DNA from: Myxococcota bacterium
Lineage (GTDB): Bacteria; Myxococcota; XYA12-FULL-58-9; JALHOP01
Direction: 5' to 3'
Length of the DNA stretch: 64,000 bases
Assembly (NCBI GenBank): GCA_022842935.1
Contig: JALHOP010000014.1
Location: 58,053-122,052 of the forward strand
Shown piece after piece: positions 583 through 3,751 of the stretch. Below the pieces are notes generated by a model. The model saw only the letters and a list, made by a program, of their open reading frames with translations. It was not told the origin of the DNA and made no database searches. The translations under genes and the position numbers were made by a program. The first letter of the stretch is position 1. Each line of letters opens with the position of its first letter.

Positions 583-2046
583 ATGAGCTCCACTATCCGC
601 CAACCACCGTCTGAGCGCCTTCCGACCCGCCAGGCGCGCGAGCTCGATGAACAGAGTACGGCGGTTCGCCGCCTGCAGACGCAGGAAAACGCCGTCGGCA
701 CCCGCGACCCGAACCTTACGCGCGAGACGAGCGCCCGCTTGAATCAGCTCGTCGACCGAGCGACGCAAACCACGCAGACGCCAGCGCAAAGCGACGCTGG
801 GCGCGCAACCAGCACCATCGGCGCCAATGGGGCGGCTCCCCTCGGGCGGACGAGCGCCGTCGACGAGCTCAACGCAAATCAGCAAGTCTTCGGCACGGCC
901 GAGACCCGCCTCGCCCCGGCAAGCGCACCCCGTGTGCAGCTCACGGAGACCCAGCGTCTCGCGGCCGAGAGCTTCGCGCACAACCTTGGCATCGCCATCG
1001 ACTCAGCTGTCGTCGATGCACGACGGCGCGCCGCCAATGTCTCGTCGACAGGCGAAAACGTCATCAATCGCGATGTTCAGGGCCTCTCGGCTGACGAGTT
1101 GCTCGCGGCCTTCTTGAAGATCAACATCAACGATCCCAATGAAAACCCCGAGACCCACTACAAGCTCTACGAGGTCTCGACCAACCTGCGCCAGCAGGCC
1201 ATCGACGACGCGAAGAAGAAGGCTGAAAACGCCCGCGAGATGAAGAAGGAAGCCGAGGCCTACGCCAAGCAGGCCGAGTTCATCAGCGTCGTCGTCACCG
1301 TCGTCTCGATCGTGCTGACGATATTCACCTTTGGAGCTGCTGCTCCTCTCGCAGCGGCTGCGGTGGGCGCGAGTGCCGGCGCGGGAGCTGCCGCGACCAC
1401 GGCGGCGAACGCTGCGGCGCAGACCGCCATTCAGACCGCTGGTAACGTCGCCAAGGAGGCTGCGATCAAGGCGGCCGTCGAAAGCGGCAAGCAGGCGTTC
1501 ACCGAGGCGGCCAAAAGCATGTCGATGGAGGGCATGAAAACGGCCCTTACCGAAGCCTCGAAGCAAGCGGCGAACACCGTCTTCAACAGCTTGAGCAGCC
1601 AGGCTCAGAACACCGCAGTGCAAACCGTCATCGACCAGGCGGCTCAGCAGGGCATGCAGCTCAGCTACGAAGCCGCGAAAGAAATGGTCATCAACGAGAT
1701 GGCCCGTCAGCTCGCGCCGCAGGTCGCCATGCAGGCATTTGCCTCGGGCGCTGTCAGCATCCCCTCGCAGGGCGTGGCGACGGCGACCAGCGCGGCACTT
1801 CAAGGGGTCTCGGCAGGTGCAAACTACACTGCCGCCGACAAGGCCCTCGATGCCCGTCAGGCCCAGCTCGGCGTCACCCGGTCGCGCTTCCGCGCCGACC
1901 AGGAGCAGGAGCGCATCCAGGAAGAGGGCGAGATCATCAACGGCATCATGGAGCAGAAGAACCGCACCATCGATGCCGTCATGCAGATGACCAACGCCAC
2001 GTGGGCCAGTCGCCAGCAGCTCATGGCCGCTTCGGTCGCGCGCTAA
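583..2046 (+). CDS. T3SS translocator-like protein, paralog 1 (coiled coil + hydrophobic hairpin)
   Basis: 487 aa, no signal peptide. RBS GAGGGA upstream. Motif LLAAFLKININDPNENPETHYKLY, K/E-rich coiled coil, hydrophobic segment FISVVVTVVSIVLTIFTFG, Ala-rich region, C-terminal helix GEIINGIMEQKN..RQQLMAASVAR. Paralogous to 2303..3751. Confidence 0.6.
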   Translation: MSSTIRQPPSERLPTRQARELDEQSTAVRRLQTQENAVGTRDPNLTRETSARLNQLVDRATQTTQTPAQSDAGRATSTIGANGAAPLGRTSAVDELNANQQVFGTAETRLAPASAPRVQLTETQRLAAESFAHNLGIAIDSAVVDARRRAANVSSTGENVINRDVQGLSADELLAAFLKININDPNENPETHYKLYEVSTNLRQQAIDDAKKKAENAREMKKEAEAYAKQAEFISVVVTVVSIVLTIFTFGAAAPLAAAAVGASAGAGAAATTAANAAAQTAIQTAGNVAKEAAIKAAVESGKQAFTEAAKSMSMEGMKTALTEASKQAANTVFNSLSSQAQNTAVQTVIDQAAQQGMQLSYEAAKEMVINEMARQLAPQVAMQAFASGAVSIPSQGVATATSAALQGVSAGANYTAADKALDARQAQLGVTRSRFRADQEQERIQEEGEIINGIMEQKNRTIDAVMQMTNATWASRQQLMAASVAR

Positions 2047-2075
2047 GCCCTCATCCCGCGTTCTTTAGCGTAATT

Positions 2076-2097
2076 GGCCGGCCATGAAGGCCCGGCC
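2076..2097 (+). terminator. GC-rich hairpin (GGCCGGCC-ATGAA-GGCCCGGCC) followed by GTTTG; possible intrinsic terminator or attenuator between the paralogs
   Basis: Inverted repeat read directly, about 30 nt after the stop of 583..2046. The T-tract is short, so weak. Confidence 0.3.
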
Positions 2098-2302
2098 GTT
2101 TGCCTATGTCGGGCGGCGGTACACCCACGTTTGCGTTTTCGAGTGAAAGAAGAGCCCGGCTCGCTCGTCGACGTGTAAACGCGCGCGCTGCTACTTTTTG
2201 CGTTTTGACTAAGCCAAACCCGACCAGCCCCAAGCCTCGCGGTGTATGTGGAGATAAGGCGCTTTTTGGGTCCACAGACCCTGCGGCGCCGAGGGGCCGC
2301 TG

Positions 2303-3751
2303 ATGGTTGTCATTCGTCCAGACCGCGAAGGCAGCAACAAGGCGCAAACGACCTTGAACGGTCCGAAGCGTCCGCGCGGTGCCGACACTGCCCAGGAAGC
2401 CGCCGAGACCAATCGCGCTGAAGAGACGCGCGTCGTCCGCCGACTCGACGCCCAGATCAGCGCCGAACACGAGCTTGGTGAGGCTGCGCGCTTGAGCAGT
2501 CTGCTACAGCGTGCAGGCGTCGGCAGCACGGGCCATGGCGACAGCGCGAGCAGCGTTCAGGCCGCGAGCGGGGCAGCCCGCGTCGCCCGTGCCGATGGCG
2601 TCGATAAGACCCAGGCGAAAGCCGACGAGCTCCAGCTGGGTGTGGTCAGCGCGCCGCGTGTCGAGCTCACCCAAAGCCTCTCCGAGAGCGCGCTCAGCTT
2701 CGCTCAGAACATCGACCGCGCCGTTGGCAATCACCTCGTGCAGACCGCCGCTGCCTTGAGCGCCCTCCCGGCGGGCCTGCGTTCGCAGCTCGAGAACAAC
2801 ATCCGAATCTCGCGTGGCGAGACTGGCGCGCAGCAGCAGGGTGACGGTCAGCAGCGGGTCTCGACCATCGAAGAAGCACGCGCCGAAGCGAACCACAACG
2901 TGCTCGTGCGCTTGCTACCCACGGTCGACCATGAGCGCGTCGCTGACAACGCTCTCGAGAGGGTCATCGACCAGAACGTTGACGCCAATGACGCCGCTCC
3001 GCGTGGCGAGCTTGCGCCGCCGGTAGTCAACGGCAACGCGAATCCCGCAGCCAATGGCGCCGCCGCGGCCGTAAACGTCGCGACCGGCGCCAACACAGCC
3101 ACCGCACGCGAGCGCCAGCGTCGCACGACCGCGACGTCCGAAGACGTGGGTCGCCGTGAGCGCGGCAGCGGGGCCCTGGCCAACGCGAGCGAGCTCAGCG
3201 CTCGCCTGAACATCGTCGACATGGCCAACCTGTCGTCCGATCAGTTGCTAGCCGAGTTCTTGAAGCTCAACATCAACGACCCGAACGCCAACGTCGAGAC
3301 GCAACACAAGCTCTACACGCTCGCGAGCGAGATGCGACAGCAGGCCATCGAAGAGGCCAAGAAGAAGATCGAGCGCGCCCAAGAGCTCATGCGCGAAGCG
3401 CAGAAGTACGCCGACCAGGTCGAGAAGTATGCCGAGGTGGCAAGCATCATTGGCATCTTCGCGGCGTTTCTGGGTCCGCTCGGGGCGATCTTGAGTGGTA
3501 TCATGCAAATCGTCGTGGCGGTTGCGCAGTACGAGGCGCAAATGAAGATCCTCGACGCCAAAGAAGAGAAGAACAACGGCGAGCGCTGGAAGCTCATGGG
3601 CGACATGCACCAAAATCAGGTGCAAGAGACCGGCGAGATCATCAACACCATCATGGAGCTCAAGAACCAGATGGTCGAGTCCGTCATTCAGATGTTGAAC
3701 GCTTCATTCTCGACACGACAGCAGCTGATGTCTGCTGCAATGGCACGCTAG
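2303..3751 (+). CDS. T3SS translocator-like protein, paralog 2
   Basis: 482 aa. Shares with paralog 1 the segments APRVELTQSL.ESALSFAQNI, LLAEFLKLNINDPNANVETQHKLY, the KKK-rich coiled coil, a hydrophobic hairpin (VASIIGIFAAFLGPLGAILSGIMQIVVAVA) and the C-terminal helix GEIINTIMELKN..RQQLMSAAMAR. Confidence 0.6.
   Translation: MVVIRPDREGSNKAQTTLNGPKRPRGADTAQEAAETNRAEETRVVRRLDAQISAEHELGEAARLSSLLQRAGVGSTGHGDSASSVQAASGAARVARADGVDKTQAKADELQLGVVSAPRVELTQSLSESALSFAQNIDRAVGNHLVQTAAALSALPAGLRSQLENNIRISRGETGAQQQGDGQQRVSTIEEARAEANHNVLVRLLPTVDHERVADNALERVIDQNVDANDAAPRGELAPPVVNGNANPAANGAAAAVNVATGANTATARERQRRTTATSEDVGRRERGSGALANASELSARLNIVDMANLSSDQLLAEFLKLNINDPNANVETQHKLYTLASEMRQQAIEEAKKKIERAQELMREAQKYADQVEKYAEVASIIGIFAAFLGPLGAILSGIMQIVVAVAQYEAQMKILDAKEEKNNGERWKLMGDMHQNQVQETGEIINTIMELKNQMVESVIQMLNASFSTRQQLMSAAMAR

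Follow-up and report, generated by a model that had tools for sequence, protein, structure and literature searches.

Tandem paralogues of a candidate SseC-type major translocator in a conserved translocon-like operon of Myxococcota-like bacteria

Of all the components of type III secretion systems (T3SS), translocators show the least conservation and are understood least, and the evolution of their hetero-oligomeric pores is an open question. In the pathogenicity island SPI-2 of Salmonella, in Yersinia and in Pseudomonas, the translocon genes follow the same order, sscA-sseC-sseD, lcrH-yopB-yopD and pcrH-popB-popD, respectively, and canonical major translocators possess two separated transmembrane helices. 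In Ralstonia solanacearum, the paralogous translocators PopF1 and PopF2 of the HrpF/NopX family share a similar architecture, serve one secretion system and are reported to be largely redundant. Chlamydia encodes two translocator sets, CopB/CopD and CopB2/CopD2 (PMC4068993, PMC4536800), where the duplication involves entire sets (chaperone, CopB, CopD) and the copies occupy separate loci (PMC4068993). The type III systems that have been studied in Myxococcota are described as needleless and devoid of a translocon (PMC12075869; PMC11509652). Here we analyze a locus of an uncultured Myxococcota bacterium where two adjacent genes, B1 and B2, encode candidate major translocators within an operon that resembles those of the classical translocons. 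The sequence, hereafter the window, is a stretch of 64,000 nt from assembly GCA_022842935.1 (contig JALHOP010000014.1, positions 58,053-122,052, forward strand).

We interpret this gene pair as the result of a lineage-specific tandem duplication of an SctE/SseC-type major translocator within a conserved T3SS translocon-like operon, in which B2 would be an extra translocon subunit, and we give this reading a probability of roughly 0.6. The genes, denoted by their open reading frames (ORFs), and the region between them are, in window coordinates:

583..2046, plus strand: ORF1 (B1), 487 aa, candidate SseC-family (SctE-like) major translocator with a full-length SseC domain
2047..2302, plus strand: B1-B2 spacer, 256 nt, with a hairpin at 2076-2097 and three conserved blocks
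2303..3751, plus strand: ORF2 (B2), 482 aa, ORF1 paralogue whose core is minimal and which has a low-complexity linker of 138 aa

A preliminary description of this stretch, which gave the same boundaries and lengths for the two genes, had proposed that they were tandem paralogues sharing three colinear blocks, and all three blocks were recovered. Block 1 (SAPRVQLT..SFAHN in ORF1 and SAPRVELT..SFAQN in ORF2) contains 12 identical residues out of 24, block 2 together with the following KKK coiled coil 39 of 66, and the C-terminal helix 39 of 85; a fourth, weaker block near the N-terminus, ARLxxLxxRA, had not been reported. In BLASTP with compositional adjustment, residues 164-262 of ORF1 align with 306-399 of ORF2 (46% identity, E = 4e-25), and residues 403-487 with 398-482 (46% identity, E = 6e-19). 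Orthologue alignments built separately for the two proteins and then compared using hhalign match with a probability of 100% (E = 3.4e-52) across 294 colinear columns, from residue 46 of ORF1 and residue 57 of ORF2 as far as both C-termini. The Smith-Waterman score of 293 compares with 65 +/- 10 for whole-sequence shuffles (z = 23) and with 85 +/- 14 (z = 14.7) if residues are shuffled only locally, in blocks of 20 aa. Thus, the similarity outlasts both composition correction and local shuffling, which argues against a coincidence of low-complexity sequences, and ORF1 and ORF2 are genuine tandem paralogues whose homology extends over the entire proteins.

The translocator-like character of the pair, also anticipated in the preliminary description, is borne out by ORF1 and by the flanking genes. 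ORF1 matches the Pfam family PF04888 (SseC) above the gathering score of 30.2 bits (36.4 bits, E = 5.9e-9), with residues 201-481 covering positions 26-310 of the 312 in the profile, and the same match is precomputed for most of the B1 orthologues. The genes immediately before and after the pair are:

1..457, plus strand: 3' end (last 151 codons) of a 377-aa double chaperone gene, encoding its C-terminal LcrH/SycD-type module
3793..4836, plus strand: ORF3 (D), 347 aa, candidate SseD-like (SctB-like) minor translocator

The chaperone fragment matches the LcrH/SycD model TIGR02552 (1.4e-14) and, over window positions 2-454, a hidden Markov model (HMM) of the double-chaperone family (1e-97). In a full-length orthologue (L001:7036-8169; loci numbered L001-L033 are the 33 related loci that we fetched and scanned with family HMMs for operon members), the N-terminal half matches TIGR02552 with 8.5e-17 (profile positions 6-134 of 136) and the C-terminal half with 2.7e-18 (positions 4-135). 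The best natural matches of the C-terminal half in PDB are PcrH (2xcb), SycD (2vgx) and AcrH (3wxx), at 2e-6 to 2e-5. Because each half matches the LcrH/SycD model and one half is homologous to the other (24% identity, E = 1e-14), this protein apparently consists of two class II (translocator) chaperone modules of the LcrH/SycD type, covalently fused in tandem; we know of no described fused class II chaperone. At every operon locus, including those with a single B gene, the chaperone consists of 365-389 aa and two tandem modules, and hence is not a consequence of the B duplication; it may accommodate B and D simultaneously.

ORF3 matches the NCBIfam family NF052420 (SseD) with E = 0.0015 over profile positions 18-147 of 152 and has one hydrophobic segment (residues 234-263); SseD matches were obtained for 8 of the 12 D-family members (best 3.8e-6). 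At all loci scanned, D directly follows B. The C-terminal ~75 residues of D are remotely homologous to the C-terminus of the B family (hhalign probability 94.6%, E = 6.9e-8); with small alignments, the probability for ORF3 against the ORF2 family was 25%. This likeness hints that the major and minor translocators here share a module, which would fit an origin of hetero-oligomeric translocons by duplication. With a TPR (tetratricopeptide repeat) chaperone upstream and an SseD-like gene downstream, the genes stand in the canonical order of chaperone, major and minor translocator, and it is the concurrence of three independent family signals (SseC, LcrH/SycD and SseD) in this order that argues for the translocon identity of the operon.

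Like the SPI-2, Yersinia and Pseudomonas operons, this one combines, in the same order, genes for a TPR class II-type chaperone, an SseC-family candidate major translocator and an SseD-like candidate minor translocator; helical proteins in which coiled coils surround a central hydrophobic hairpin, as in those systems, are predicted here; and the first gene of the operon (UP) sits where those operons have tip or filament genes. Unlike in these systems, the chaperone is built from two covalently linked modules (377 aa) and is not a homodimerizing protein of ~150-170 aa, there are two SseC-type genes instead of one, the operon includes two more conserved genes (one for a Pro-rich protein of 714 aa and one for a DMATS-like protein of 372 aa), no apparatus genes are located nearby, the host is an uncultured Myxococcota-like bacterium, and the curated family threshold is reached by ORF1 only. 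With CopB and CopB2 of Chlamydia, the locus shares the presence of more than one major translocator paralogue per genome and the location of translocator genes apart from most of the apparatus genes. Unlike in Chlamydia, B alone is duplicated, in tandem, and in all six loci concerned one chaperone gene and one D gene serve both copies. PopF1 and PopF2 of Ralstonia are likewise two paralogous translocators; in contrast to these, the proteins described here belong to another family, differ greatly in core length and are both strongly constrained.

Close homologues are few, with 9 matches for ORF1 and 14 for ORF2. Among 185,579 species representatives, three metagenome-assembled genomes (MAGs) match two peptide patterns specific to the clade; in NCBI, two of these are labeled Myxococcota and one "uncultured Bdellovibrionales". 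The related MAGs are GCA_964484195.1, GCA_041288095.1 and GCA_039809465.1. An exhaustive profile search yielded 129 family representatives at 50% identity, all of them with the same blocks, and a third homologue search, which used the family alignment, yielded nothing further. The operon is found in lineages with 49-71% G+C. In the relatives, the gene order is UP, double chaperone, B, D, P (640-840 aa) and X373 (the last two being the counterparts of ORF4 and ORF5, respectively); in the clade with two B genes, the order is UP (385-395 aa), double chaperone, B1, B2, D, P and X373, and the segment from the chaperone through B1 and B2 to the SseD-like gene is seen in the window, L001, L003 and L004.

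Whether related genomes carry one copy or two was one of the checks proposed in the preliminary description. A single B directly followed by D is present in at least 11 distinct, divergent metagenomic loci (L008, L010, L012, L014-L017, L022/L028, L026, L029 and L031), with B and D almost contiguous, and two B genes in six loci only (the window, L001, L003, L004, JGI 3300050046 and L033). Thus, the B duplication is restricted to the small clade that includes the window. In a neighbor-joining tree of the core that is common to the family members, the B1 clade is supported by 95% and the B2 clade by 98% bootstrap. The orthologues therefore group by copy, which indicates that the duplication predates the divergence of these genomes; given the same bootstrap values, gene conversion between B1 and B2 has not occurred. 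The deeper nodes of the B tree are unresolved, and forms with a short core are scattered over it.

The two paralogues differ in architecture, although not in the way first proposed, namely, by insertion of different domains. ORF1 does contain an Ala/Gln-rich segment without a counterpart in ORF2, but its length is ~140 aa (residues ~263-402; Ala 28%, Gln 11%) rather than about 200, and it falls within the canonical SseC domain match. Across the family, the interval between block 2 and the C-terminal ESKN motif takes a continuous range of values from 133 to 364 aa; the ORF2 clade is at the family minimum, with 133 aa, and ORF1 has 280 aa. The Ala/Gln-rich stretch is therefore the length-variable, helical middle part of the SseC domain, kept in ORF1 and missing from ORF2, so that the ORF2 core is minimal whereas ORF1 has gained no module. 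Given the continuous core lengths and the scattered short-core forms, variation of the core is a general property of the B family. In some single-B loci, for example L017 (3108-4046; 313 aa, with a core of ~150 aa), the sole B is short; judging from this arrangement, a minimal-core protein with an architecture like that of ORF2 can serve as the only major translocator, and B2 is therefore not a crippled copy.

The extra sequence in ORF2 was correctly sized in the preliminary description, at about 140 aa (~138), but is not N-terminal: it is placed between block 1 (residues 117-137) and block 2 (residue 311 onward). This stretch is of low complexity and variable in length among the orthologues, is modeled with low confidence and short helices only, does not occur in those B2-clade members that are 350 aa long (P0016, P0017), and is the fastest-evolving part of the protein. 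For all these reasons, a linker fits better than a domain.

Each protein has one hydrophobic stretch, at residues 226-265 in ORF1 and at 376-411 in ORF2, the latter with GPLG at its center. In the AlphaFold2 secondary structure of ORF2, a helix at 331-390 is followed by a turn and another helix at 392-481, such that, in this low-confidence model, the hydrophobic stretch sits at the apex of a long hairpin of helices that turns at GPLG. Long helices around the hydrophobic stretch are predicted in both ORF1 and ORF2; these low-confidence models are compatible with a hairpin, and two separate transmembrane helices are not seen in either. The N-terminal anchor by which major translocators bind their chaperones is P/VxLxxP (PMC13466201). 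N-terminal to the hydrophobic region, both paralogues share a conserved Pro-rich motif, L-x-P-x-x-(A/P)-P-x-V-x-L, followed by GAESFAxN.

Estimates of the ratio of nonsynonymous to synonymous substitution rates (dN/dS), with the orthologues in L001, L003 and L004 as the reference, show that both B copies are under purifying selection and functional. The overall values are 0.16-0.37 for ORF1 and 0.21-0.35 for ORF2, compared with 0.11-0.24 for D and 0.17 for P. The ORF2 core (residues 305-482), at 0.05-0.10, is under the strongest constraint of all the operon stretches measured, and the supposed modules, that is, the ORF2 linker (150-305; 0.33-0.77) and the ORF1 middle part (262-402; 0.17-0.63), are the least constrained. 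The notion that ORF2 is a decaying or non-functional duplicate, or that its blocks resemble those of ORF1 by coincidence, could draw on the failure of ORF2 to reach the SseC threshold and on the long low-complexity stretch within it. Against decay stand the intact reading frame in six loci, the low dN/dS of the core and the invariant start codon region, and against coincidence, the composition-corrected and locally shuffled comparisons, which are still significant. With BLASTP, hhalign, the shuffles and dN/dS in agreement, we reject the pseudogene and low-complexity explanations, to which we attach next to no probability.

A further question is whether the two copies are alternative pore subunits or host-range variants, both of which had been suggested at the outset. 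Under the latter possibility, either B could stand in for the other as the major translocator, each being used for different targets or conditions (host- or prey-range variants), an arrangement that would recall PopF1/PopF2 of Ralstonia or the two Cop sets of Chlamydia. This view is consistent with the retention in both proteins of every common block, the putative chaperone-binding one and the hydrophobic hairpin among them. Furthermore, a short-core B is the sole B in some lineages (L017), so B2 could work alone with D, and the conserved spacer upstream of B2, along with a B2-D pair without B1 in L009 (see below), would fit separate regulation. However, there is no presence/absence variation among the six two-B loci, and diversifying selection is not detected in the membrane and core parts, with the B2 core being so tightly constrained. 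Moreover, the identity in the common blocks is ~46% and the architectures are strongly different, which suggests division of labor over interchangeability. Since both copies are kept in 6 of the 6 loci, the orthologues group by copy and the B2 core is highly constrained, we consider host-range variants unlikely; the best reading is that B2 is a subfunctionalized extra, or alternative, translocon subunit and not a host-range cassette.

The spacer that separates the two B genes is 220-260 nt long in all six two-B loci. The GC hairpin noticed previously at 2076-2097 is indeed present: it begins 30 nt past the ORF1 stop codon and reads GGCCGGCC, ATGAA, GGCCCGGCC, with a 9-bp GC stem and one bulge. 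In each of the four aligned loci, a GC hairpin can be read by eye just past the B1 stop codon, with differing sequence, and the window copy alone was folded. The hairpin was not called as an intrinsic terminator by a terminator scan because only three T follow it. The spacer has no match in Rfam, and its overall fold is no better than those of shuffled sequences (z = -0.38). Three blocks, CGTGTAAACGCGCGC (2172-2186), ACCAGCCC (2223-2230) and GTGTATGTG (2242-2250), are invariant in the four loci, as are the B2 start codon and the first codons of the gene; each of the blocks occurs once in the window and once in L001. In L011, the sequence GTGTATGT recurs upstream of the B2-type gene, at a distance of ~55 nt. 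These blocks may be a promoter or an element of the 5' untranslated region; reading them as a sigma-70 or extracytoplasmic function (ECF)-type promoter was dropped because the spacing does not fit the consensus.

In L009 (7779-8928), a B2-type gene (350 aa, no linker) is followed by the start of a D-family gene and sits behind an unrelated gene for a 427-aa protein, with neither the chaperone nor B1 upstream. Thus, B2 and D can exist as a detached unit. Taken together, the spacer blocks, the occurrence of GTGTATGT in L011, the detached B2-D pair in L009 and the contiguity of B and D in the single-B loci suggest that a regulatory region of its own came along with B2 and that B2-D-P-X may be transcribed as a unit by itself.

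If B2 is an extra translocon subunit, the following scheme can be envisaged. The double chaperone would hold B1 and B2 in the cytoplasm via the Pro-rich block 1, and they would be exported by a type III machine whose genes lie in another part of the genome. Each protein would then enter the target membrane by its single hydrophobic helical hairpin of ~31-36 aa, with B2 acting either as a non-redundant additional subunit of the B/D pore or as a stage-specific alternative to B1; B2-D-P-X would possibly be transcribed from its own promoter in the spacer.

Several observations weigh against this scheme and the interpretation behind it. ORF2 alone scores below the SseC threshold (15.1 bits, E = 0.018), both chaperone halves (61 and 66 bits) fall short of the TIGR02552 equivalog cut-off of 104.8, all the SseD matches are below the NF052420 cut-off of 130 bits, and block 1 matches the P/VxLxxP consensus only loosely. 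A single hydrophobic stretch of 31-40 aa per protein departs from the two transmembrane helices of the canonical major translocators. The AlphaFold2 models are of low confidence (pLDDT, the predicted local distance difference test score, is 47.0 for ORF1 and 45.8 for ORF2), so that secondary structure alone was used; PDB sequence and profile searches with the B families returned only designed helical repeats or noise, and a Foldseek search of PDB with the ORF1 model produced no match with an E-value under 0.5. Injectisome genes (SctV, N, J, C, RSTU or needle) were found neither in the 64-kb window nor in the flanking 10 kb at any of the loci checked, which number more than 12, and the model T3SS* of Myxococcota is described as devoid of needle, secretin and translocon (PMC12075869).

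These same facts bring up the possibility that the module does not depend on type III secretion at all. Under such a scenario, pore-forming proteins and their TPR holder would be released by another route, such as a Tad-like or needleless predation apparatus, vesicles or lysis, with bacterial prey as possible targets, and the likeness to translocators would reflect common ancestry only. Apart from the family matches below the curated thresholds, for all but the ORF1 SseC match, it is favored by the neighborhood of the loci, in which genes for polyamine metabolism, a sigma factor, LexA and ArsA-like proteins take the place of injectisome genes, and by the needleless, translocon-free T3SS* known in Myxococcota (PMC12075869, PMC11509652). 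However, the gene order equals that of the sscA, lcrH and pcrH operons, and the proteins have polar N-termini with much Ser, Thr and Arg, in which inspection by eye reveals no hydrophobic leader. To our knowledge, class II chaperones and members of the SseC and SseD families have been described exclusively as parts of T3SS, and the separation of translocator genes from apparatus genes has precedents, for instance, in Chlamydia. On balance, a module independent of type III secretion seems rather improbable to us.

The T3SS* of Myxococcus xanthus and Bradymonabacteria, in the same phylum by the NCBI labels of the related MAGs, is a candidate for the export machine; in contrast to these systems, which are described as lacking needle, secretin and translocon (PMC12075869, PMC11509652), the lineage described here has a translocon-like operon. 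This juxtaposition invites a bolder and doubtful proposition, that a broadly conserved yet unannotated translocon module of a Myxococcota-like lineage, remote from injectisome genes, perforates target cells together with a needleless T3SS*/Tad-type apparatus or an unseen injectisome, and that the clade of the window has a three-component pore (B1, B2, D), which would illustrate the rise of hetero-oligomeric translocons through duplication. The locus brings a translocon-type operon to a phylum in which the type III systems studied have been described as lacking both needle and translocon, and provides a natural series that consists of a single B with a long or short core, a constrained two-B clade and a fused double chaperone. 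Should the export machine be found, the lineage would become a test case for translocon function outside the classical animal and plant pathogens, and the module would gain in interest if it cooperated with a needleless system or if a three-component pore were made up of B1, B2 and D.

Downstream of D, the window contains the remaining conserved operon genes, followed by genes of the neighborhood:

4904..7048, plus strand: ORF4 (P), 714 aa, Pro/Gly/Gln-rich, conserved operon member
7045..8163, plus strand: ORF5 (X373), 372 aa, last conserved operon gene, weak likeness to DMATS-type aromatic prenyltransferases
9095..9802, minus strand: sigma-70/ECF-type sigma factor gene, with Pfam Sigma70_r4, r2 and ECF matches
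10023-10721: LexA, downstream of the operon
11448-13609: two ArsA-like ATPases, downstream of the operon

All the operon proteins are deposited as hypothetical or unnamed. Searches of the Pfam and NCBIfam families gave no match for ORF4, which has a conserved helical region (residues ~445-520) and a conserved C-terminal helix. P is conserved in L001 and L003 and in the divergent loci L010, L020, L026, L028, L029 and L031, and is doubtful in L016; kinship of ORF4 with B or D was rejected given the hhalign probabilities of 16-18% (18% against B block 2). The stop codon of P overlaps the start codon of X373 (7045-7048). ORF5 matches TIGR03429 (E = 2.7e-5) and Pfam Trp_DMAT (E = 0.0023), in both cases far below the cut-offs, and has no PDB match by sequence search; X373 occupies the same position in L001, L003, L016, L028, L029 and L031.

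The first operon gene, UP, lies upstream of the window (in L001, at 5773-6960) and encodes a conserved protein of 300-395 aa whose C-terminal helix, RNKRQMASTAFQNFDQKANQLYNLMASVLKVMNEMR, is strongly conserved. No relatives of UP were found in Pfam, NCBIfam or PDB. By analogy with the known operons, UP would occupy the position of the tip or filament genes; Pfam and NCBIfam gave no tie between UP and a tip or filament family, and no remote homology of UP to the D family was found. PDB sequence and profile searches with the D, UP and X373 families returned only designed helical repeats or noise.

The neighborhood of the operon is conserved and housekeeping-like (window positions 1-14600; L001, L003, L004, L008, L012, L029 and L031), with polyamine genes (AdoMet_dc, BpsA_C) upstream. 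An equivalent of the sigma factor gene follows the operon in L001, L003, L028 and L029, which makes the gene at 9095-9802 a candidate regulator of the operon.

Farther away in the window, three other genes deserve mention. A TLC-family (ATP/ADP-translocase-like) membrane transporter is encoded at 50031-51236 (Pfam PF03219, 64 bits), which is notable in a stretch with translocon-like genes. On the minus strand, a 1791-aa protein with a PT-TG pre-toxin domain of the polymorphic toxin type is encoded at 51800-57175, and a protein with Imm11 and SUKH-1 immunity-like domains at 36883-37890.

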